This document shows positions 9,833 through 47,474 of a stretch of 64,000 nucleotides of DNA, one piece after another. Under the pieces are notes generated by a model, which ran no database searches, was not told the DNA's origin, and was given only the letters and a program-made list of their open reading frames with translations. The stretch spans positions 1 through 64,000 of the IMG/VR virus record IMGVR_UViG_3300011113_000123; one strand, given 5' to 3'. The position numbers and the translations under genes were made by a program. Each line of letters opens with the position of its first letter. Position 1 is the first letter of the stretch. Source of the stretch: a virus.

Positions 9833-10048
9833 ATGAAGTACGCTAAGGTCAAAGATAACCCAGAGCTAATACGTGATATGCAATCCAAGGCGGTTTTGAA
9901 TACAAACTTATCCGCCTTGGAATCATACAAGAAAAAGCGTGAAAAACAGCAAGAACTGAGTTCAGCCATTGCTGATATAAATAATATGAAGCAAGACATC
10001 AATGATCTCAAGACGCTCATGCAGCGCATTCTAGACAAGATAGGATAA
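9833..10048 (+). CDS. Small coiled-coil protein typically following the DUF4815 gene
   Basis: VKDNPELIRD..SKAVLNTN followed by heptad coil; tight gene packing. Confidence 0.7.
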   Translation: MKYAKVKDNPELIRDMQSKAVLNTNLSALESYKKKREKQQELSSAIADINNMKQDINDLKTLMQRILDKIG

Positions 10049-10051
10049 TCA

Positions 10052-10762
10052 ATGGCAAAGATTGCTAACGTTGCTCTTACCAACACATTCGATACGTGGA
10101 GAGTACGATCAAATGAAGCGTTTGATCGTCTAAGTCAGTTTGCTATTGACAACTCTAAGCTGTATGCTAACACGATTACAGCTAACGTTCGTTTCGTTTC
10201 TTCAGGAGCAACTAAGCTCGGAAGCAGTGGATCTACAAGAACTATCGTCAACGGGCTGCTGAGCGGCAACGGAAACATCAACGTTTCTGGTAATACAGTT
10301 CTTGGTGGTGCTAGTAAAACGCTAACTGTTGGTGGTGCTGGTGCGACTGCAAACGTTACTGGTTGGTTTGGTGTCAACGGCCGTGCGTCAGTTTCAACGA
10401 ATCTGGTCGTTGGGGGTAATACTACGCTCAATGGCACGACAATTGACAAGTCTAACGCGCTCAATCAAACTCTGACCGATGCAGCAACTATCAACTGGGA
10501 CACATCGCTTGGTCGTGTAGCCACAGTAACGCTTGGTGCATCTCGTACAATCGCCGCTCCTACTAATCAAAAGGTTGGTACATACATCCTTCGTGTTATT
10601 CAGGGTGGAACTGGCAGTTACACTTTGACTTGGAACGGTAACTATAAGTGGACTGCTCAATCTGCACCTGTTCTTTCTACAGCTGTCGGAGCAATGGATA
10701 TCTTTACGTTCTTCTCTGACGGTACAAAGATGTATGGATCTTATCTCCCAGACGTAAGGTAA
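10052..10762 (+). CDS. Short fibre protein; C-terminal domain paralogous to that of 37689..39506
   Basis: TNTFDTWRVRSN N-terminus; C-terminal LTDAATINWD...YGSYLPDVR domain. Confidence 0.7.
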   Translation: MAKIANVALTNTFDTWRVRSNEAFDRLSQFAIDNSKLYANTITANVRFVSSGATKLGSSGSTRTIVNGLLSGNGNINVSGNTVLGGASKTLTVGGAGATANVTGWFGVNGRASVSTNLVVGGNTTLNGTTIDKSNALNQTLTDAATINWDTSLGRVATVTLGASRTIAAPTNQKVGTYILRVIQGGTGSYTLTWNGNYKWTAQSAPVLSTAVGAMDIFTFFSDGTKMYGSYLPDVR

Positions 10763-10765
10763 GAA

Positions 10766-12292
10766 ATGTTTCTAGGATTCCTAGCAAGACCAACAAAAGT
10801 CGTTAATATCAGCAATGCTGCTAGTAACGTAAATCTCTACACTCAAGCGGGAAGTCCACCTTATCCGCTCAACTTGCTATGTTTTATCAACGCAGCCGTA
10901 TCATCTAACTCGCCCTCTACACCCGCGTTCGACGTAGGAACAGGATGGAGGGGTGGAACTTTCGTTTACGTTGATAACAACAATACGATCACTGGTCGAA
11001 TCGGAAATACAGGAAATCCAGGTAACACAGGTAATCCAGGAACTAATGCTCTACCTGGTGCACCAGGCAATCCAGGCAACACAGGAACTCCAGGCAACCC
11101 AGGATCAGCAGGGAATCCAGGAACAGCAGGCAATCCAGGCAATCCAGGAACAGCAGGTAATCCAGGTAACACAGGAACTCCAGGAAACAGCGGCGCTGGT
11201 GGAGCCGGTGCTGCTGGAAACACGACAGCCAACGGAAGTGCTGGCTCACCAGGAAACGCTGGTGGCCCAGGTGGAACTGGAAATAATGGCGGAACTGGTG
11301 GACCAGGGAATAACGGGGGAACAGGCAACTCTGGAATTCCAGGAAATCAAGGCGGTCCAGGTGGAACTGGTAATCCAGCTGGTGCAACTACTCCAGCGAA
11401 TCCAGGCGGACCAGGTAATGCTGGCGGCACAGGAGGAACAGGTGGAGCTGCGTTCGCTGTTCCTTCAGTGACTGGATTGATAACAGTTGTAGATAATGGC
11501 GGCGGTACATTCACTGGAGGAACTGGCGGTCCAGGCGGTCCAGGCGGTCCAGGAGGACCTGGTGGCGCTTTTGCTTTTGGTGCACCAGGCGGACCTGGGG
11601 GCCCAGGCGGTCCAGGAGGTCCTGGTGGCGCAGGCGGACCAGGTGGAGCCGGCGGACCAGGAGGCCCAGGTGGTGCGCGCGGACCTGGCGGACCTGGAGG
11701 TCCTGGTGGTTCTGGCGGCGGTGGCGGCGGTGGCTCAGCAGGAACGTATAGTGACGGTAAAGGCAGTAGCGATTCTGTTCGTCCTGGTGGCGGCGGTGGC
11801 GCAGGCGTACCAGGCGGCCCTGGAGGAGCTGGAGCCGGTGTTGGTGGAAACCCTGGCGCTGCAGGAACAGCTAATGCTGGTGGAGCTGGTGGCGTTCGAT
11901 CATTAGGTAATCCTGCTGAGCAGCGTTTTGGTGGCAATGGTGGAAACTTGGGTGCAGCGGGTAATCCTGGGCAAAACGCTGGTAATGGTGGTAGTGGGAG
12001 AACGCTTGGTGGTGGTGGTGGTGCTGCGGGCGCAACTGGACCAGCAGGAGCTCCAGGTAATGCGGGTGCTACTGGACCAGCAGGAACTCCAGGTAATGCG
12101 GGAACGCCTGGTTCTACAGGTCTTACAGGCGTTACAGGACCAACTGGACCTGGTGGTTTGTTTGCTCCAGCAGGATCGACAGGCCCAGCTGGCGCAACTG
12201 GTCCAACAGGATCACAAGGTAATGCTGTAACTGGCAACGCAAATATAACTAGATACATAGCAACAGGAACTAGAAACGGACCAATAGCATGA
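10766..12292 (+). CDS. gp38-like glycine-rich adhesin with expanded Gly-X-Y tracts
   Basis: [15 protein letters not shown]...VDNGGG, poly-Gly and terminal [11 protein letters not shown]...GTRNGPIA frame resembles T-even gp38; long GNP/GGP/GAT triplet runs. Confidence 0.65.
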
Positions 12293-17025: not shown

Positions 17026-17637
17026 TTAGATGAACTTGGGTCCAAGGCACCATACAACCAATGACTTACGATTACCTTTAGTTACTGGCGTCACACGATG
17101 AATCATAAAGGACGGGAAAAGAACAGCCCGTCCTTTATGCATTGGGACTATCAGCGGTGTTTCTTCCTTACCGTTATTGATTTGAAACTCACCACCCTCA
17201 AAATCATCGTTGAGCGCGAGCGAAAGTGACAGCTTACGCGGCTCTGCATCGTTACCAAACTTTTCACCAAACGTCATATCTGTGTGCCAGTCGTATCGAC
17301 CATTCGAGTCGTAGGTTGTATACTGGAACGAATCATAACCATTCAGGTGAAAGTTATAGAACTGTTCGTTTGCAGCCTGAATGATAAAGTTCAGCTTATC
17401 AAAAATCCACGCCGTATTTTCGTTTCTTTCATGAAACTTGACGTTCGACACGCGATGCTTCTCGATGTCTTCTTTTGATTGAGCACCAAACGTAACACCT
17501 TGCTCTGTACCAGATGAATCGCAATAATCAACAATAGCCTTGAGTTCTTCATCAGTAAACGCGCCGTCCCAAGTCACATAAGGGAACGTGATCTGCGAAC
17601 GCTGCCAGGGATTATTGTATATTGTCGTGTATGTCAA
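17026..17637 (-). CDS. 2OG-Fe(II) oxygenase (prolyl-4-hydroxylase/PKHD-like)
   Basis: YDWHTD (HxD), RKLSLSLALN..FEGGEF, FPSFMIHRVTPVTKGNRKSLVVW. Confidence 0.9.
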   Translation of the reverse strand: MTYTTIYNNPWQRSQITFPYVTWDGAFTDEELKAIVDYCDSSGTEQGVTFGAQSKEDIEKHRVSNVKFHERNENTAWIFDKLNFIIQAANEQFYNFHLNGYDSFQYTTYDSNGRYDWHTDMTFGEKFGNDAEPRKLSLSLALNDDFEGGEFQINNGKEETPLIVPMHKGRAVLFPSFMIHRVTPVTKGNRKSLVVWCLGPKFI

Positions 17638-18317
17638 AACTGTCTCCAGTTGCTTACAGGTTGAATACCAAGCGGGCTTGCTGTTTTATTTTTGTATGTG
17701 AGAACGACGTCTGCCGCAAGACATATACGATTTTCGTTTAGTTCTGCGAATGTAGGATTGCCTTTATCCTCACCATTCGTTTGACCAATCGTATCGTGTG
17801 GGAGCGTAGAAGGAAACACTAGCAGCTGCCCCTCGACTGGCTCAAACTGCCATGTGTATGCGTTGAACCAATCCCACGTATCGTTTTTATTATTCCATCT
17901 GATTGAGCCTGGATATGGCTCATGACGACGTTCATAGTTGAAGAAACGGATTGGGCGAACGAACGTCGTCGGAACATTTACGTAGTAAGTGAACGACACG
18001 TGTGCGTCCCCATGCGCGTGATACGGCGTTGAGTCGTCCTTCTTGATATTCATCCACGTCTTCACGAGATTGAACTCAAACTTATCCGTGTCGATGTGTA
18101 GTCGCCTTACGTATTGCTTCACGCAGTCGATAGCGAACGTGAAGAACGGATTGAACGACTCTTCATGATGGATATTGACGTGACCAGTGAACTCGTTAGA
18201 GTAACCTTCTGGCGTCATGTAGTTGAAGATCTTCTGATAAAATAGATCTTTGAACTGATCTTTCTTATCGTAATGGAACTCGCATACTAGGGTAGGGAAT
18301 AGAGCATGTTCAATCAT
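17634..18317 (-). CDS. Putative 2OG-Fe(II) oxygenase (TIGR02466-like)
   Basis: LFPTLV N-terminus, WMN, HAH...SFTYYV, EGQLLVFPSTLPH, RICLA. Confidence 0.8.
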   Translation of the reverse strand: MIEHALFPTLVCEFHYDKKDQFKDLFYQKIFNYMTPEGYSNEFTGHVNIHHEESFNPFFTFAIDCVKQYVRRLHIDTDKFEFNLVKTWMNIKKDDSTPYHAHGDAHVSFTYYVNVPTTFVRPIRFFNYERRHEPYPGSIRWNNKNDTWDWFNAYTWQFEPVEGQLLVFPSTLPHDTIGQTNGEDKGNPTFAELNENRICLAADVVLTYKNKTASPLGIQPVSNWRQF

Positions 18318-19288
18318 TTTTCACTCTGTAGCGATCTGAGTTTATTTAATACTGATGCTGATGCGTTCGCAGAAGTAGCTATGATTTGCTCGGCTTGTTC
18401 GCCTGTGATGAGCTGAACTTCCATCCTTGATTTAGTCGCTTCTGCTATGTATGCTGGATCATTTACCGCTTTATTGAATGCTTCGCGTAACTCGCGAACT
18501 CTGGCTGCTGGAACGCCTGGAGGAGCGATGAATGGTCTCAGTAGAATGAACTGCGTTTCGAAGATATCGAGGATAGCAAGATCTTCTTCGTTCGTAATTA
18601 GCTCAGCGAATGTAGGTACATCCTTGAAGTCTGGATGGCGAATCTTAGCGTTACCAAATTGCATCAGCGCGCGGATGCCGCTGTTAGATTCTGTCCACTG
18701 TGTCTGTGTTCTGATTCCTAATAGATTGAAGATAACTGCATCAACTTCTTTGCGTTCCAGAGCTAGTCGAGCTGCACCTGGGTTAGCGTATCCCGCAATC
18801 TGTCTGAAGTTGAGCCCTAACGAGTTTCGAATGAACTTCGTCGAGTCAGCCGATACGATACTCTCAGTGCCGACGATCAGTTCTTTTGTCTTAAACTCGC
18901 TCAGAGATTCTGTCCTGTGGGTCCATACAATGACTGCATCTTTACGCCCATCAACGGTAGACCCTAGCCAGTTGAACTTGGTAGGGTCAAACATAATCGT
19001 AGGACCACCCAAGATACCTACGAGCGGAATGTTCTTATACACTGTAGCAATCGTTCCGCCGTCGCGTGGGGCTACGTTATACATGTAATTTGTAGCGACC
19101 AAGCTAGACGCTCCAGGCATAACTTGAATGACTGGAGAAGGTTTTTCGGGAAGATATTTGGCTATGTGTGGGGCTATGATTCTAGCATTGATGTTATAGC
19201 TATCTGCAGGCGAAGGGGTAATAATACGCAGTTCTTGCGCCATCGCACTCGCAGATAGCGCCAAAAACAAAACTAATGATCTAATCAT
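18314..19288 (-). CDS. Bug/TctC-family tripartite tricarboxylate transporter substrate-binding protein
   Basis: Signal peptide MIRSLVLFLALSASAMA; MPGASSLVATNYMYNVAPRDG, ALERKEVD, RHPDFKDVPT, APPGVPAARVRELREAF. Confidence 0.85.
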   Translation of the reverse strand: MIRSLVLFLALSASAMAQELRIITPSPADSYNINARIIAPHIAKYLPEKPSPVIQVMPGASSLVATNYMYNVAPRDGGTIATVYKNIPLVGILGGPTIMFDPTKFNWLGSTVDGRKDAVIVWTHRTESLSEFKTKELIVGTESIVSADSTKFIRNSLGLNFRQIAGYANPGAARLALERKEVDAVIFNLLGIRTQTQWTESNSGIRALMQFGNAKIRHPDFKDVPTFAELITNEEDLAILDIFETQFILLRPFIAPPGVPAARVRELREAFNKAVNDPAYIAEATKSRMEVQLITGEQAEQIIATSANASASVLNKLRSLQSEK

Positions 19289-19307
19289 ATTATTATATAG
19301 CATCCTT

Positions 19308-19315
19308 ACTAAATA
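19308..19315 (+). promoter_or_regulatory. Variant late promoter (ACTAAATA) upstream of the curli/cyclase operon
   Basis: Same ACTAAATA variant sits upstream of tail tube gene at 32086-32093. Confidence 0.5.
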
Positions 19316-19339
19316 GAATCGTAACCGAAAGGATCGACG

Positions 19340-19618
19340 ATGGACTTTTTCAAGCTCGTTGCCGAGGTTGGTTTTCCTATAGCATCTGCAATAGCAGGCG
19401 GATATTTTGTTTTCCTCACGCTTAAGTTTATTCTAGCTGGTGTTATGTCGAGTGTCAAGGGCCTTTCAGGAATTATCATGGCCCTGGATAATCGCGTAAA
19501 GACCATGAATCACGACGTCATTCGTATTGACACATTGGTTTCCAATGCGCTTGGTTTGAAGCCAGACACGGATCGTATAGCCCGTGCTGATGGTAAGAAC
19601 GACGCAAGGAGAGACTAA
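19340..19618 (+). CDS. Small membrane protein (GFPI motif, TM + coiled coil)
   Basis: LVAEVGFPIASAIAGGYFVF; paralogous to next gene. Confidence 0.65.
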   Translation: MDFFKLVAEVGFPIASAIAGGYFVFLTLKFILAGVMSSVKGLSGIIMALDNRVKTMNHDVIRIDTLVSNALGLKPDTDRIARADGKNDARRD

Positions 19619-19917
19619 TGACTGGCGAAATCGTTAACCTGATTAATAAGTATGGCTTCCCTATCGTGGCTGCTGGCGGAATGGGTTATTTGATTTTCTA
19701 TGTGTGGAAATGGGCCACGCAAGAAATCAAACCAGTTCTGTCAGAAGCAAATACAGTTCTGATCGCATTGATTGATCGTATTCGTATGTTGGATAACGAT
19801 CTTATTCGCCTTAATCAAAAGGTTAATGTCGTATTAACATTACGACAGAAACAAATCGAGGAGATGAAAGATGCTCAGACTAACGACGATAGCGGTGCTG
19901 ATAAGCCTAAGCAATAG
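19618..19917 (+). CDS. Small membrane protein (GFPI motif, TM + coiled coil), paralogue
   Basis: LINKYGFPIVAAGGMGYLIFYVW; ALIDRIRMLDNDLIRL aligns with ALDNRVKTMNHDVIRI of previous gene. Confidence 0.65.
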   Translation: MTGEIVNLINKYGFPIVAAGGMGYLIFYVWKWATQEIKPVLSEANTVLIALIDRIRMLDNDLIRLNQKVNVVLTLRQKQIEEMKDAQTNDDSGADKPKQ

Positions 19918-20314
19918 TTCGTTCGCTTCTGAATTGCAATTTGGCTTTAAGAGTCCTGCGTTTAACGGCGTAGGATACTCTGCTCACGTTCTAACCATTG
20001 AGAATCTCGAACACACGCGTCGTCAGAAGATCTTTGACGATGCGAAAGCTGCTGCGGCTAAAGAAGCAGCAGATGCTAAGAATACGAACTTAGCTAAGTT
20101 TCTAAACAACTTGGAAAGTCGTATCTATGCTACGTTATCACAGAAGATAGCAGAAGAGCTTTTCAAGGATGGTGGGAACACGACAGGCACGTTTGATGTG
20201 GCGGGTAATAACATCTATTGGTCCAGCACTGGGTCAACGATTACGCTACGCATCACAGATCCTGCGGGTAAGGTAACGGAAATAGAAGTTCCATACGGGA
20301 GCTTGGCATGGTAA
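19871..20314 (+). CDS. csgF: Curli assembly protein CsgF
   Basis: Signal peptide then ELQFGFKSPAFNG (cf. CsgF TFQFRNPNFGG); C-terminal ITLRITDPAGKVTEIEVP; directly upstream of csgG. Confidence 0.8.
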   Translation: MLRLTTIAVLISLSNSSFASELQFGFKSPAFNGVGYSAHVLTIENLEHTRRQKIFDDAKAAAAKEAADAKNTNLAKFLNNLESRIYATLSQKIAEELFKDGGNTTGTFDVAGNNIYWSSTGSTITLRITDPAGKVTEIEVPYGSLAW

Positions 20315-21114
20315 AAGCACTAAGTGTAATTGTAGCAAGTTTGTTGTTAGCTTCTTGCGCGACTCAAGAAAATACGAAAGATCGCATCGAAGCGATGTCC
20401 GAACCTGCGGAAATCATTACACGCAAACGTTCCAACGAGCTGATGAACTTACCGCCGCTCGATGGTCCAAAGATTCCGATTGCTGTGTATCGTTTTCCAG
20501 ACATGACAGGACAACGTAAGCCAGCTACGAACTTTGCAAGTTTAAGTTCTGCTGTCACGCAGGGAGCGGAAGTGTTTCTGTTCAAGGCGCTTCATGATGC
20601 AGGAAGAGGGCAGTGGTTCCAAGTCGTAGAACGTTCTGCTCTAGAAAACTTAGTTAAGGAACGACAACTGATTCGCTCGCAGCGTGAGCTGTATGAAAAG
20701 GATCAAGCCAAGCCACTGACGCCACTTATCGTGGCAGGTATCATGCTAGATGGTGGAGTCGTTGGATATGATTCTAATATAGGAACTGGAGGTATTGGCG
20801 CTCGACTACTGGGCGTTGGTGCTACACAAGAATACCGTAAGGATGAAGTCACTGTTGTATTGCGCTTGATTTCCGTAAACACAGGCGAAGTTCTGCTATC
20901 AACTGGCGCATCCAAAACGGTTTTGAGTACGGGAGCAGGGGCTAACGTATTTAAATTCATTGATGTCGGAACTAAATCCGTAGAATTTGAAGCTGGATCG
21001 ACAATCAATGAGCCAACAACTTACGCTGTACGAATCGCAATCGAGGCAGCGGTGGCCGATATGGTAAAAGAGGGAGCTAAGAAAAAGCTCTGGAGCTACA
21101 AGAAAACGAGGTAA
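20308..21114 (+). CDS. csgG: Curli secretion outer-membrane pore CsgG (lipoprotein)
   Basis: Lipobox LLASC; IAVYRFPDMTGQRKP, SSAVTQGA, WFQVVER..LENLVKERQLIR, GGVVGYDSN, GGIGARLLG, NEP. Confidence 0.92.
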   Translation: MVKALSVIVASLLLASCATQENTKDRIEAMSEPAEIITRKRSNELMNLPPLDGPKIPIAVYRFPDMTGQRKPATNFASLSSAVTQGAEVFLFKALHDAGRGQWFQVVERSALENLVKERQLIRSQRELYEKDQAKPLTPLIVAGIMLDGGVVGYDSNIGTGGIGARLLGVGATQEYRKDEVTVVLRLISVNTGEVLLSTGASKTVLSTGAGANVFKFIDVGTKSVEFEAGSTINEPTTYAVRIAIEAAVADMVKEGAKKKLWSYKKTR

Positions 21115-21120
21115 CAACCA

Positions 21121-21798
21121 ATGAGAATTCCGAGTCTGACATTCTTGTCATTCTTGGTCATGGTTGGAAATGCAAACGCTCAACCCAATACTGTGTATGT
21201 GGAGCAAATAGGTTCAGGATCAACGATTAACTTTACACAAACGGGAACAGGTAACGCGATTGGAAATTCAACAGCGAAAGCTGTTGTGAATGGCAACAAC
21301 AATACGATCACTGTAGAACAGATAGGAAATACCAACGTCGCTGCTCTCAATGCAGTCGGCGCTGGTATGAACATATCTTCTATCACTAACGGAAACGGAA
21401 ACTCTGTTTCTATCGACTGTGGATCATCTGGCGATTGTACTGGATCAACGATCTCGAACACAATCACTGGTAACGGTAACTCATTAACCACAAACTCCGA
21501 CAACTTGATTGATTCTACTGTGACTATCAACTCTGATAATAACACGGTAACGATCGACAACACGTCAACAGCGGTGAGCGGTGCTAAGTCTAAGATTGAC
21601 ATTAGCGGTGGTAACGGTAACACAGTCGCGCTCACGCAAGCGGGAGCAGCTGGAACTAACGGACACGACGCTGAGGTTAATATCTCAGGTGCTACCAACA
21701 ATGTTCTAGTAAAGCAAGGTGGAAACAATGATTCCATGGTCAACGCTACAATCATTGGTTCTGGTAACACTCTGTCTATTAAGTCCAACTTACAGTAA
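21121..21798 (+). CDS. Curlin-like (CsgA-type) repeat protein
   Basis: Signal peptide; repeated (E/T)QxGxxN and I-x-G-N-x-N units; N/G/T/S-rich; adjacent to csgG. Confidence 0.75.
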   Translation: MRIPSLTFLSFLVMVGNANAQPNTVYVEQIGSGSTINFTQTGTGNAIGNSTAKAVVNGNNNTITVEQIGNTNVAALNAVGAGMNISSITNGNGNSVSIDCGSSGDCTGSTISNTITGNGNSLTTNSDNLIDSTVTINSDNNTVTIDNTSTAVSGAKSKIDISGGNGNTVALTQAGAAGTNGHDAEVNISGATNNVLVKQGGNNDSMVNATIIGSGNTLSIKSNLQ

Positions 21799-22828
21799 TG
21801 CTTCTGTAGGTACGGTAACAGAACAGACAGGACCGACCGAAATAAAACGTCAGACGAATGTGATTCTCAGCGCCAGGGATACTGGCGTTGAGATGCAAGA
21901 TGTTATTACGACTGCGAACGCGAAAGCGAACATCACATTCAAAGACGACACCAAGGTACAAATCACAGAACATTCTAGGCTTGTTATCGACAACTTCGTC
22001 TACGACGATAGTAAGAAAACTGGTAGGCTCGGAATGAAAATGGCGTTGGGTACTATCAAGTATGCCAGTGGTCAGATAGCGAAAGCTAATCCTCAACAAG
22101 TAACAATCGAAACTCCTACTGCGACCATCGGCGTTCGTGGTACGGACTTTTCTGGGACCGTAGATGAGATTGGGCGTTCGACTATCATTCTCCTTCCTTC
22201 ATGCCCAGTCGGATGGAGAAACATTCAGCGTGATTGTGTGGTAGGATCTATTACGGTTACAACGGATATGGGAACCGTGGTACTCACTCGTGCGTTTGAA
22301 GCGGTGAACGTACAAACGCGAATGGCCCAACCCAAATCGTCGATACTGAATCTTTCGCTGGATCAAATTAATAATCTAATCATCGTAAGTCCGCCAGCCT
22401 CTGTGCGAACAGAAACGGCTGCTGTTCGCACAAGAAACTTACTCGACGATGACCTTTTAGGTAAAGATTTTCTAAAGTACGATGAGCTCGACAAGAATCA
22501 GCTCGACGAGTATCGAAAACTAGATGAAAACTTTTTGGATAAAGACTATCTCTATAACTTTCTAGACGTAGCTGGTACGCAACTATTGACTAACGAGCTC
22601 GCTGAGTTCAATGCAATGTTACCTAAATATGACGCAAGGAGTGGGCTAAAGTATTTCGTAGAAAACGATGCAGTCACATTGTATCGTGAAACTGTGAATG
22701 CGTTCGCCAGCGTTACTGTGCCAATGTATGATAGCATGACTTTGCGATTGAGTCAAGAAGGCTTGGAAATCAAACAAATCGTTAACTCAGCCGGAACAAC
22801 AACGATCACTATTAGACAGAGTAACTAA
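21728..22828 (+). CDS. Secreted FecR-domain protein
   Basis: Signal peptide; DVITT...ITFKDDTKVQITEHSRLVIDNFVYD...IETPTATIGVRGTDF (FecR domain with GT motif). Confidence 0.85.
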   Translation: MIPWSTLQSLVLVTLCLLSPTYSNASVGTVTEQTGPTEIKRQTNVILSARDTGVEMQDVITTANAKANITFKDDTKVQITEHSRLVIDNFVYDDSKKTGRLGMKMALGTIKYASGQIAKANPQQVTIETPTATIGVRGTDFSGTVDEIGRSTIILLPSCPVGWRNIQRDCVVGSITVTTDMGTVVLTRAFEAVNVQTRMAQPKSSILNLSLDQINNLIIVSPPASVRTETAAVRTRNLLDDDLLGKDFLKYDELDKNQLDEYRKLDENFLDKDYLYNFLDVAGTQLLTNELAEFNAMLPKYDARSGLKYFVENDAVTLYRETVNAFASVTVPMYDSMTLRLSQEGLEIKQIVNSAGTTTITIRQSN

Positions 22829-22830
22829 TC

Positions 22831-23094
22831 ATGAAATCATTACTAGCTCTGCTTTTCTTAACGATTTCTGCTAATGCGCAGCAGATCAATAACGCAACAG
22901 TGAATGTAATCGGAAACAATCAGAATGTTATTATTAATCAATCTGGCGTTGGTCACAACGCTAATCTTAATCTTTATGGCAATGACATACCTGTTAGTGT
23001 TACTCAGTCAGGCTCTACTCCGCAGTCTTTTAATCTTAGCATTACCTGCTATAGCAATTGTTCTAACGCTCCAACTGTGGTTAATCAATACTGA
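22831..23094 (+). CDS. Small curlin-like (CsgB-type) protein
   Basis: Signal peptide; VIGNNQ, INQSGVGHN, VTQSG repeats. Confidence 0.65.
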   Translation: MKSLLALLFLTISANAQQINNATVNVIGNNQNVIINQSGVGHNANLNLYGNDIPVSVTQSGSTPQSFNLSITCYSNCSNAPTVVNQY

Positions 23095-23096
23095 CA

Positions 23097-25160
23097 ATGG
23101 AAAAAATTGGTCAATACCTAACAAGCACATGGTCAGCTGTTATCTCAGCGATAATCCTGCTGGGCGTATATGTGTGGAATCCCAGCGCCGTTGAGATACT
23201 AAGGCTGAAGACGTTCGACTATCTCATATCGACGTTACAGCCTAAAGAGTCAGAAGAAATCATCATCGTCGAGTTTGGTGAAAAGTCCGTAGAGCGATTT
23301 GGTCAGTGGCCATTCGATAGACGCGATATCGCTAAAACTGTTCAAGCCCTTCGTGAGAACGATGCTGGCGTTATTGTTGTTCCCATCCTTATGTCCGAGA
23401 AGGACAGAGCTGGTGGTGACGCAAAGTTAATTGAAACGATCAAAGATAATGGAGTAGTCCTTGCTCAAACCCCTACTAATCAAAACACTAAGCCTGATGC
23501 AGTACGCCGCGGAGTCGCTGCTATCGGTCCTACTGATCCTCGCAGCTATACTTTTCGCTGGAACGGTGGATTACGCCCTCTGGATGAGTTGGCAGGGTCT
23601 GCTCAAGGGGTCGGGGTTCTCGCTTCTGTCCCCGAAGTCGATGGTGTTGTTCGTCGTCTCCCTCTACTTGTTACTATTGCAGGCAATCTGTATCCATCTC
23701 TACCTATTGAAGCGATTAGAGTTTGGTCCGATGATAAAAGCTATCAAGTCAAAACTAGCGAAGCGGGAATAGAGTTCGTACGCATTCCAGCAGTTCCACC
23801 TATCGCTACAGACGAGCGCGGTAGAGTATGGCTATCATGGAATAACAAGTTTACTAGAATCGACGCAACAGAAATAGATCAGAGAGTTCAAGGAAAGCTA
23901 GTCATCCTTGGCGTCTCGATTGAAGGTGTCGGCGGGATTATCGGCACCCCAGCGGGCGAAAAGTGGAGTCATGAAGTTCAAGCATCTGCGTTGCAAACTT
24001 TGATAGATGGATCGTCGATAACACGAGTGTCTTTTGCGACGATAGTCGAGCTGCTCGTTCTATCTGGTATGCTAGGATTATTGCTTGTTCTTGTGCCAAG
24101 AACGTCTGTTTTATGGACTGCGCCATTATATCTAGCATTTATTGGGATCTCCGCATATGGTTCGTACTACATGTTCAAAGAACATATGCAGCTCTGGGAT
24201 GCCAGTTATTTATTGTTAGCAGGCACAGCGAGCTTTGGTCACTTAGTATATAACAACTTCGCTCGCGAGAACAGACTGAAACTACAAATCAAAAAGCAGT
24301 TCGGAACGTATCTGTCACCAGCGATGGTCGAAAAGCTGCAACAGAATCCTGACCTACTCAAGTTAGGTGGAGAGACTCGCGAGCTTTCAATTATGTTCAC
24401 TGACGTTCGCGGCTTCACTGCTATCAGCGAGCATTACGGAAGCGACGTTCAGGGATTGACGCGCATCATGAATCGTTATATGACAGCGATGACTCAAAAG
24501 ATCCTTGAGAATAACGGAACGTTGGATAAGTACATTGGCGATGCGCAGATGGCATTTTGGAACGCACCCCTAGACGATCGCGATCACGCTAAGAACGCAG
24601 TCAAAACTGCATTGGAGATGTTAGATGACTTGGATAGATTCAATAATGAGATCTCTGTGGAAGGAGTTCCCCCGTTTGGTATGGGTCTCGGTATTAACTC
24701 TGGTTCTGTGGTCGTTGGTAACATGGGCAGCTCTCAGCGTTTTGATTATACATGCCTTGGTGACTCTGTAAATCTAGCTTCACGTCTCGAAGGTCAGTCT
24801 AAGCCCTATCACGTCAAGATGATCATTGGCGAACGTACCGCTGAGCTTCTGAACGGCGACTATCCGCTCGCAGAGCTAGATTGCATCGCGGTCAAAGGTA
24901 AAACTAAAGGCGTCAAGATATACACGATCGTTCCAGGAACAGGCATACAGCGCGAGCATCTCAAGAATCACAACAAGTTCATAAAGGCTTATCGATATCA
25001 GGACTGGGAGAACGCTCTATTCTATTTGAAGATTCTTAGAGGCGCGTTCAACAAAGAACTCGACGAGTACTATGCTATGATGGAGGAGCGTATCGCAGAA
25101 CTACGCGTCGCTGATTTGCCTAAAGATTGGGATGGCGTATACAGGGCTACATCGAAATGA
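23097..25160 (+). CDS. CHASE2-domain membrane class III adenylate cyclase
   Basis: CHASE2 (GQWPFDR, DGVVRRLPL), TM helices, cyclase motifs MFTDVRGFT, DKYIGDA, GINSG.VVVGNMGS, DYTCLGDSVNLASRLEG. Confidence 0.93.
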   Translation: MEKIGQYLTSTWSAVISAIILLGVYVWNPSAVEILRLKTFDYLISTLQPKESEEIIIVEFGEKSVERFGQWPFDRRDIAKTVQALRENDAGVIVVPILMSEKDRAGGDAKLIETIKDNGVVLAQTPTNQNTKPDAVRRGVAAIGPTDPRSYTFRWNGGLRPLDELAGSAQGVGVLASVPEVDGVVRRLPLLVTIAGNLYPSLPIEAIRVWSDDKSYQVKTSEAGIEFVRIPAVPPIATDERGRVWLSWNNKFTRIDATEIDQRVQGKLVILGVSIEGVGGIIGTPAGEKWSHEVQASALQTLIDGSSITRVSFATIVELLVLSGMLGLLLVLVPRTSVLWTAPLYLAFIGISAYGSYYMFKEHMQLWDASYLLLAGTASFGHLVYNNFARENRLKLQIKKQFGTYLSPAMVEKLQQNPDLLKLGGETRELSIMFTDVRGFTAISEHYGSDVQGLTRIMNRYMTAMTQKILENNGTLDKYIGDAQMAFWNAPLDDRDHAKNAVKTALEMLDDLDRFNNEISVEGVPPFGMGLGINSGSVVVGNMGSSQRFDYTCLGDSVNLASRLEGQSKPYHVKMIIGERTAELLNGDYPLAELDCIAVKGKTKGVKIYTIVPGTGIQREHLKNHNKFIKAYRYQDWENALFYLKILRGAFNKELDEYYAMMEERIAELRVADLPKDWDGVYRATSK

Positions 25161-25168
25161 TATAAATA
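25161..25168 (+). promoter_or_regulatory. Late promoter TATAAATA upstream of gp13
   Basis: Exact consensus immediately after cyclase stop. Confidence 0.85.
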
Positions 25169-46935: not shown

Positions 46936-47474
46936 TTAACAAACCTAAAGCCAAGAAGCACTACGTAAACAACAAGGATCTGTATGATGCTATGGTTGCG
47001 TATAAGGCTCAAGTGAACGAGAACAAAGAAGCTGGAAAGCAAGCACCACGTATTCCTCACTACATCGGTGAGTCGATTATGAAGATTGCAACACATCTTG
47101 CCTATCGTCCAAACTTTGCAAACTATACGTTTCGCGAAGAGATGATCTCTGACGGTATCGAGAACTGTTTGCTATACATCAATAACTTTGATCCAGCTAA
47201 GTCGCAGAATCCTTTCGCATACTTTACGCAGATCATCTACTTCGCTTTCATTCGACGTATTCAGAAAGAAAAGAAGCATCTCTATACGAAGTATGCAGCC
47301 ATCGAGTACGCTAACATCATGGGAGAAACGTCCGAGTCTCAGGGAGGTGATAGCGGATCATACGATACTGATATCAAGTATGGTGAATGGTCCAAGGAAC
47401 AGATGGAGAAGTTCATGGCTGACTTTGAGACTAGTAAGGGTATCAAGCGCGGAAGTAAGAAAGCTGCATCATGA
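46932..47474 (+). CDS. gp55: Late-transcription sigma factor gp55
   Basis: HYVNNKDL, IATHLAYRPNF.NY..REEMISDGIENC, NPFAYFTQI...AF.RRI.KEK. Confidence 0.95.
   Translation: MINKPKAKKHYVNNKDLYDAMVAYKAQVNENKEAGKQAPRIPHYIGESIMKIATHLAYRPNFANYTFREEMISDGIENCLLYINNFDPAKSQNPFAYFTQIIYFAFIRRIQKEKKHLYTKYAAIEYANIMGETSESQGGDSGSYDTDIKYGEWSKEQMEKFMADFETSKGIKRGSKKAAS

Follow-up and report, generated by a model that had tools for sequence, protein, structure and literature searches.

The viral DNA analysed here (the window) comprises positions 1 to 64,000 of the IMG/VR record IMGVR_UViG_3300011113_000123 and is part of the 157.6-kb record of an uncultured T4-like aquatic phage with a G+C content of about 45%. 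Positions 19340 to 25160 of the window hold a block of eight plus-strand open reading frames (ORFs), overlapping or at most 6 nt apart, which encode two small membrane proteins, CsgF, CsgG, a curlin-like protein of 225 aa, a secreted FecR-fold protein, a second curlin-like protein of 87 aa and a CHASE2 adenylate cyclase. Here it is proposed, with a probability of roughly 45%, that this block is a late-expressed viral curli cassette which joins fibre export to a FecR/CHASE2 envelope sensor. A previous sequence-only reading of this DNA had described eight overlapping or abutting genes between a late-like motif and the promoter of gp13, and all of these ORFs were found as described, with support from Pfam and PHROG families.

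The association of these genes was followed in a survey of 108 loci, collected through CsgG and FecR searches and scored with models built from the phage proteins. Of 89 viral contigs bearing FecR, 77 extend far enough upstream, and all 77 have CsgF and CsgG; 41 reach at least 9 kb downstream, and all 41 have the CHASE2 cyclase; two small membrane genes occur in 35 of 37. This bears out the co-conservation that the sequence-only reading had expected for csgFG, FecR and the CHASE2 cyclase. The order CsgF-CsgG-curlin-FecR is constant throughout the survey, and the two small genes lie upstream, in inverted orientation 3' of the cyclase, or between an inverted cyclase and FecR. In many contigs, this pair or the cyclase has changed place or orientation, yet the parts are still linked, also in podophage-sized and jumbo-sized contigs, and linkage that survives rearrangement argues for a single functional unit. 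Other phages carry envelope-related cargo between FecR and the cyclase, namely an LpxH-like metallophosphoesterase with a GT4 glycosyltransferase (8 loci) or DUF4337 (8 loci); further cargo found there includes D-Ala-D-Ala carboxypeptidase, fatty-acid desaturase, NAD-dependent epimerase/dehydratase, non-specific nuclease and HNH endonuclease.

The secretion part of the cassette begins with csgF (19871..20314, plus strand; PF10614, 2.7e-16), whose product has a signal peptide and an N-terminal motif, F-x-F-K-x-P-x-F, corresponding to the CsgG-binding end of E. coli CsgF, with F26, P29 and F31 invariant in the alignment of the two proteins. The next gene, csgG (20308..21114, plus strand; PF03783, 7.5e-54), encodes an outer-membrane lipoprotein channel with the lipobox LASC and 39% identity to E. 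coli CsgG. At the constriction, Y51, N55 and F56 of E. coli CsgG are replaced by A, S and L in the window, and by S, S and L or similar residues in relatives. Judging by these sequences, CsgG should assemble with CsgF into a type VIII channel of the outer membrane. Its likely cargo is the pair of curlin-like proteins, both with signal peptides. The first of these, a secreted repeat protein of 225 aa (21121..21798, plus strand), matches Curlin_rpt with 1.4e-3, and the second, a short secreted protein of 87 aa with Q-x-G/N motifs (22831..23094, plus strand), with 0.064; both matches are sub-threshold, scoring 19 and 13.7 bits, respectively, against a cut-off of 20.7. Both proteins are rich in N, G, S and T with a period of about 22 residues, the longer one containing 37 N and 29 G and keeping its length of 225 aa in close relatives, and in the Methylophilales phage Melnitz and the Pelagibacter phage HTVC008M the homologues of both bear a curlin-repeat annotation. 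The gene at the second-curlin position encodes 64 to 806 aa in other phages, and in 14 further loci it is replaced by genes for N/G/S/T/Q-rich repeat proteins of 617 to 1098 aa. No match to CsgE (PF10627, E up to 1) was found in the 157.6-kb phage record, and neither CsgC nor CsgD was found among the cassette genes, in agreement with the sequence-only reading.

The FecR gene (21719..22828, plus strand; PF04773, 5.2e-12) probably starts at ATG 21728 and overlaps the 3' end of the first curlin gene by about 70-80 nt, the overlap (21719-21798) encoding the FecR signal peptide. Its relatives have 361-362 aa at 98% query coverage; the database entry for the protein of the window itself (100% identical) has 322 aa, covers 87% and lacks the N-terminal part. 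The signal peptide directly precedes the FecR domain, and no anti-sigma domain or membrane anchor was found in the protein, from which it is predicted to be exported to the periplasm. In the AlphaFold2 model (81 sequences, mean predicted local distance difference test (pLDDT) 87), the signal peptide is followed by a FecR/PupR-like domain (residues ~30-210), a low-confidence acidic linker (~215-300), which is flexible and very variable in length across the family, and a C-domain (300-369). The FecR domain has the fold of the PupR CCSSD (6ovk_R, Z 15.4, root-mean-square deviation (rmsd) 2.6 over 135 residues) and of the anti-sigma factor BDI_1681 (4m0n, Z 14.3). The G-T pair of its VRGTDF motif is invariant and corresponds to the self-cleavage site of FecR/PupR-type regulators. 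Residues 27-122 of the model also match 5ix9 (Z 10.3, rmsd 2.3, 73/76 residues), a domain from the N-terminus of MpIBP, a giant adhesin that binds ice; this domain served as template for the LapA retention module (10.1101/198937).

The C-domain of the FecR-fold protein is small, six-stranded and conserved; folded alone it reached a pLDDT of 68, with a best structural Z of 3.4 and no Foldseek match at E up to 0.001. Its end, with the pattern ...ITQDG...VNxGGxNxITIxQ, was considered as a curlin repeat, and this assignment was dropped, as the profile comparison with the curlin alignment gave P 0.0025 and a probability of 12% (0.067 in the reversed control), and the C-domain model matched no curlin ORF. 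A complex prediction for CHASE2 (residues 25-330) with mature FecR (28-369), run with separate alignments, scored 0.00 against a mark of 0.32, which speaks neither for nor against an interaction.

The last gene (23097..25160, plus strand) encodes the CHASE2 sensor adenylate cyclase (CHASE2 PF05226, 1.2e-35; Guanylate_cyc, 2e-22), with a first transmembrane segment, a periplasmic CHASE2 domain (24-323), three further transmembrane segments (~313-389), a class IIIb cyclase domain (428-611) and a tail of 65 aa; hydrophobic segments 8-32 and 308-340 were computed, and the other two, reaching ~389, were judged by eye. The residues for metal binding (D436, D482), adenine recognition (K478, T552) and the transition state (N559, R563) are kept, as is K600, so that the intact metal-binding Asp pair, adenine-specifying Lys and N/R pair noted in the sequence-only reading are confirmed. 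D436, D482, K478, R563 and K600 are invariant in 48 cyclase homologues; in 16 of these 48 phage cyclases T552 and N559 are replaced by D and S, which may be a subfamily difference or a local shift of the alignment. The closest solved relatives, by alignment, are Pseudomonas aeruginosa CyaB (3r5g), Spirulina CyaC (1wc0) and Cya2 (2w01). The protein is accordingly predicted to reside in the inner membrane, with CHASE2 in the periplasm and a cytoplasmic cyclase domain holding all catalytic residues. The tail (residues 620-687, at 24954-25160) is conserved, ends in WDGVYRATSK and belongs to no Pfam family; bacterial CHASE2 cyclases match a model of the phage tail with E 1e-11 to 1e-16.

The FecR/CHASE2 combination has bacterial counterparts. 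CHASE2 was detected in 132 of 301 sampled Alphaproteobacteria, and about 8 of 24 CHASE2 genes from 20 alphaproteobacterial genomes have an ORF with a FecR domain within ~5 kb, for which chance would give ~0.6%. One alphaproteobacterial locus includes an ABC transporter, HlyD, a CHASE2 cyclase, a TolC-like OEP and an RTX protein of 2017 aa with an N-terminal FecR domain, and in a second locus the N-terminus of an RTX/cadherin/FG-GAP adhesin of 3417 aa is likewise a FecR domain. In type I secretion loci (L141, at G279:C1:511000-530000, L146 and L147), the CHASE2 cyclase gene lies between the HlyD and TolC-like genes, beside giant RTX adhesins that begin with a FecR domain. Two other bacterial loci combine a CHASE2 cyclase, a TPR protein and FecR, and a cluster in a SAR11 genome (L140, at G004:C1:316000-335000) combines CHASE2-SpoIIE (PP2C phosphatase), a 435-aa protein, FecR and a ShlB/POTRA transporter; among the eight bacterial loci compared, the FecR of this cluster fits the phage FecR model best (2.3e-31). 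Models derived from the phage proteins match the bacterial cyclases with 1e-73 to 1e-83, tail included, and the FecR proteins with 1e-16 to 1e-31. The close FecR family itself is essentially viral, as a scan of 185,579 species genomes returned five contigs, all from metagenome bins. These had been considered as a bacterial curli-FecR locus, which was rejected, since the two longest with FecR (L029 and L030) carry the phage cassette and look like phage DNA.

Related gene clusters are also found in the literature, including cyclase-phosphodiesterase-FecR-TPR clusters with CHASE2 in Campylobacterota (PMC9239204) and a Burkholderia CHASE2 kinase with LysM-FecR (PMC5192318); among the papers searched, none joined FecR with a retention module or an RTX adhesin. 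In Sinorhizobium meliloti, the outer-membrane partner of CyaD1/D2/K is NsrA (PMC7529298), and the FecR-domain protein SMc02177 is a target of the cyclic AMP (cAMP) regulator Clr and dispensable for signal perception (PMC5498481). The statement of the sequence-only reading that rhizobial CHASE2 cyclases sense the surface with FecR and outer-membrane partners is therefore a loose one. From these genomic contexts we infer that the CHASE2 cyclase and FecR are a bacterially derived sensor pair, repeatedly encoded next to secretion pores of the outer membrane. Such recurrence speaks independently for the broader idea of a trans-envelope device. That idea, as first put forward for the window, is thus upheld in part: it agrees with the single selected unit, the secreted FecR of PupR fold and the bacterial FecR/CHASE2 pairs beside pores.

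The two genes at the start of the cassette encode small membrane proteins of 92 aa (19340..19618, plus strand; phrog_18771, 1.4e-34) and 99 aa (19618..19917, plus strand; phrog_18771, 1.2e-33), the second being a paralogue of the first. Both have a GFPI motif, which in the first protein lies in an N-terminal hydrophobic segment followed by a charged helical C-terminal tail. No Pfam family was found for the first protein even at E 10, and only chance-level rows for the second up to E 10; neither has HisKA or HATPase_c domains in these searches. Proteins of this kind have been published as "histidine kinase", a label that was rejected here, because a kinase would have to be far longer and neither protein contains a kinase domain. 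Residues 4-22 of the second protein match a holin PHROG weakly (2.7e-4), and the nearest named Atlas cluster of the first is YvrJ (0.89), which is a lead only. Being constant companions in the cassette, the small proteins are possibly inner-membrane effectors, and on these two hints, the weak holin match and the YvrJ-like neighbour, they are candidates for the missing cAMP effector.

Regarding transcription, the late-promoter-like motif ACTAAATA (19308..19315, plus strand) has a single mismatch to the T4 late consensus and is located 24 nt 5' of the first start codon, in the 36-nt gap that separates the cassette from a divergent TctC-like gene. Close relatives have (A/G)ATAAATA at the equivalent position. 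Among the relatives, about 50 of 62 small-gene units and 50 of 52 CsgF-first units have TAAATA within the 100 nt that precede them, compared with 5-10% of random 100-nt windows, so that late-type motifs precede both movable units. At the other edge, after the cyclase stop codon, an exact copy of the late promoter TATAAATA (25161..25168, plus strand) lies ~27 nt before the likely start (25195) of a gp13-like neck gene, whose product matches phrog_211; the window has 8 exact copies of TATAAATA, with 2 expected. Sigma-70-like promoters and terminator-like sites within the block were at chance level only, which is consistent with a single transcription unit, and together with the late-type motifs upstream makes a late operon the best reading; late expression of the cassette is thus plausible from its sequence. 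No extracytoplasmic function (ECF) sigma factor was found in the phage record, as the sequence-only reading had stated for the cassette. The sole sigma-like signal of the record is a weak Sigma70_r2 match (47115-47276, plus strand; 1.1e-4, below the cut-off) in an open frame of 186 aa, probably a gp55-type late sigma factor.

Taken together, a mechanism may be proposed in which the phage would add, late in infection, a set of envelope proteins to the infected Gram-negative cell, and the CsgG/CsgF channel would export the curlin-like proteins. In bacteria, the FecR/CHASE2 pair appears in adhesin secretion loci, either type I with a TolC-like pore or of the ShlB two-partner type, where giant RTX adhesins can carry the FecR domain at their N-terminus, the place of a periplasmic retention module. 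By analogy, the phage FecR could signal to the cyclase what state the CsgG/CsgF pore or the exported fibre is in, the cyclase would then alter cAMP synthesis, and the two small membrane proteins might be further parts of the system, possibly as its inner-membrane effectors. A more specific and rather improbable form of this proposal makes FecR a retention-module-like reporter, its flexible linker and C-domain engaging the pore or fibre, and its folded FecR domain remaining periplasmic and touching CHASE2. CHASE2 receptors would then generally sense the occupancy or tension of outer-membrane secretion pores and of the fibres tethered to them (type I, two-partner and type VIII), and the phage would sense cell contact or superinfection and act through the small holin-like proteins instead of host CRP.

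Several observations weigh against a sensor that couples fibre export to the cyclase. The survey is biased towards close relatives of the FecR and CsgG of the window phage, and the curlin assignment rests on Curlin_rpt matches below the threshold. The constriction residues of CsgG are unlike those of E. coli and CsgE is missing, by which the export of amyloid subunits is not assured. Podophage cassettes often have no cyclase (Wittmers 2022, PMC9599517), so that FecR may act with the pore independently of it. Regarding the output, no cyclic-nucleotide-binding (cNMP-binding) domain was found in the phage record, one is present in just 3 of 61 Pelagibacterales genomes with a completeness of 85% or more, and no class III cyclase was found in the 61 Pelagibacterales genomes searched; a reader of the signal would thus be missing for the relatives that infect SAR11. 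An output through host cAMP and CRP, as suggested in the sequence-only reading, is consequently doubtful for the SAR11-infecting members of the family. For the amyloid antenna, the sensing of superinfection and the control of lysis timing that it had also suggested, nothing in the analysis shows them. A CHASE2 protein is encoded in 22 of the 61 Pelagibacterales genomes, with a phosphatase output in the one inspected (G004). The Metallophos cargo gene of 8 other cassettes was considered as a cAMP phosphodiesterase and rejected, being LpxH-like and paired with a GT4 glycosyltransferase, and is more likely a lipopolysaccharide-related enzyme; the LpxH-like homologue of the window's own phage lies far from the cassette (93849-94580 of the record).

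Among other explanations, the one closest to the proposed sensor is that infected cells make curli-like fibres for aggregation ("sibling capture") or as a shield against superinfection, with FecR and the cyclase merely regulating fibre production. The two overlap and differ in the component to which they assign the main purpose. Such a role, proposed by Zaragoza-Solas 2020 (PMC7029224) and Wittmers 2022 (PMC9599517), agrees with the constant presence of CsgF, CsgG and one or two curlin-like secreted proteins and with the large N/G/S/T/Q-rich repeat proteins (617-1098 aa) of the 14 further cassettes. It is nevertheless somewhat unlikely, as infections with Melnitz proceeded without clumping (PMC9004378), the Curlin_rpt matches are sub-threshold, and the product of the second fibre gene can have anything between 64 and 806 aa, with just 87 aa in the window; moreover, a late operon leaves little time for transcriptional control by cAMP, and most SAR11 genomes searched have no cNMP-binding protein. 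A lysis-timing device, in which CsgG/CsgF acts as a gated pore that triggers or delays lysis, perhaps with the small holin-like proteins, and the cyclase gives the timing signal, was published as an idea for Melnitz (Buchholz 2022, PMC9004378). The late operon would suit it, and so would the small proteins with their N-terminal membrane segment and helical tail, one with the weak holin PHROG match (2.7e-4) and the other with the YvrJ Atlas neighbour (0.89). These two signals are weak leads only, however, CsgG lies in the outer membrane and therefore cannot depolarise the inner one, and the curlins and FecR are left without a role, so that we regard this device as quite improbable.

An uptake function was suggested by Zaragoza-Solas (PMC7029224) and Wittmers (PMC9599517), according to which an ungated CsgG channel would admit nutrients, cofactors or iron chelates to the periplasm, with FecR as an iron-related regulator. 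The absence of CsgE and the constriction residues, smaller than in E. coli, are in its favour; but FecR here has no anti-sigma domain, partner sigma factor or nearby TonB-dependent transducer, its name denotes a fold and not iron sensing, and CsgF, the curlins, the cyclase and the small proteins are left unexplained, all of which makes uptake very unlikely. Equally strongly disfavoured is the absence of any coupling, with separate auxiliary genes merely sharing a variable genome region. This region does take unrelated envelope genes elsewhere (LpxH-like with GT4, DUF4337, D-Ala-D-Ala carboxypeptidase and nuclease), yet in about 90 contigs the cassette parts remain linked despite inversions and transpositions, and in the window the genes overlap or abut. 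A curli cassette coupled to a FecR/CHASE2 sensor is thus preferred here.

Upstream of the cassette, the divergent TctC-like gene (18314-19303, minus strand) encodes a periplasmic solute-binding protein with a signal peptide (PF03401, 5.3e-10). It is kept at the same place in relatives, some of which have two copies, and as a clue to the host it gave no match at E 1e-30 in 250 gammaproteobacterial genomes. Two overlapping genes for 2-oxoglutarate-Fe(II) oxygenases are also found near the cassette (17026-17637 and 17634-18317, minus strand; PF13640, 3.4e-16, and PF13759, 9.5e-10), and in HTVC008M a gene with a phytanoyl-CoA-dioxygenase domain lies immediately 5' of the small cassette genes. Positions 10001-12000 of the window have a G+C content of 0.53, compared with ~0.45 elsewhere in the window.

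The cassette takes up ~6 kb of genome and gives the infected cell a secretion system that its host lacks. Aquatic phages carry it widely, the FecR protein being encoded in more than 500 viral contigs, and the viral curli genes, which belong to podophages as well as myophages, were present at all 65 ocean stations examined and expressed in metatranscriptomes (PMC9599517). If the FecR/CHASE2 pair does read the state of the pore or fibre, this would provide a ligand logic for the CHASE2 domain, and the phage would be building an outside-in sensor of its own.

Compared with the curli system of E. coli, CsgBAC-CsgDEFG, the phage cassette shares the CsgG lipoprotein channel, the N-terminal motif of CsgF and the N/Q/G-rich secreted repeat proteins. 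It differs in lacking CsgE, CsgC and CsgD, in its A/S/L constriction and in curlin repeats that fall below the Pfam threshold, and the FecR protein, the cyclase and the small membrane proteins are phage additions. With the FecR/PupR anti-sigma regulators of cell-surface signalling, the phage FecR has in common the fold of the periplasmic domain and the invariant G-T of VRGTDF; in place of the cytoplasmic anti-sigma domain and anchor it has a signal peptide, its C-domain is a small beta domain of another kind without a clear match among known structures, and the phage has neither an ECF sigma factor nor a TonB-dependent transducer. The likeness to RTX adhesins of the LapA/MpIBP type lies in the fold of the N-terminal plug domain (the 5ix9 match) and in the flexible linker after the phage FecR domain, which recalls the pore-threaded segment of LapA. 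In contrast to these adhesins, the phage protein has 369 aa, is a Sec substrate without RTX repeats, and is accompanied by a CsgG pore instead of a TolC-like one and by no LapG or LapD genes; a threading of FecR through CsgG would be pure conjecture. As in the bacterial CHASE2/FecR clusters, a CHASE2 sensor adjoins a secreted FecR-domain protein, with an outer-membrane partner in some of them. The partner pore in the phage is CsgG/CsgF, and no phosphodiesterase, TPR protein or cAMP-responsive regulator accompanies it, in the cassette or elsewhere in the phage.

The closest known systems are the viral curli regions already published. The presence of csgF and csgG was reported for pelagimyophages by Zaragoza-Solas 2020 (PMC7029224), a role in lysis timing was proposed for Melnitz, a phage of OM43 (Buchholz 2022, PMC9004378), and Wittmers et al. 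2022 (PMC9599517) described curli genes with FecR, "HK" (histidine kinase) and adenylate cyclase in pelagiphages. The last authors defined the region by co-located csgF, csgG and a curlin-repeat gene, with one or two small "HK" genes ahead of them and, after them, FecR, frequently a further curlin and an adenylate cyclase. The gene order of the window agrees with this description of a viral curli system (type VIII secretion system, T8SS) and is identical, over all eight genes, to that of Melnitz and HTVC008M, with protein identities of 36-63%; at the DNA level, Megablast of the cassette against phage records found nothing. The two small genes, csgF, csgG, the curlin, FecR, the second curlin and the CHASE2 cyclase are all shared, and every PHROG family matches. 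As differences, the second curlin has 87 aa in the window and 338-441 aa in Melnitz and HTVC008M, and the cassette of the window is located between the TctC-like gene and gp13, whereas the published regions lie between the gene 32 protein and baseplate genes. The cassette of the window thus introduces no new principle and is a divergent, intact member of the viral curli block already published.

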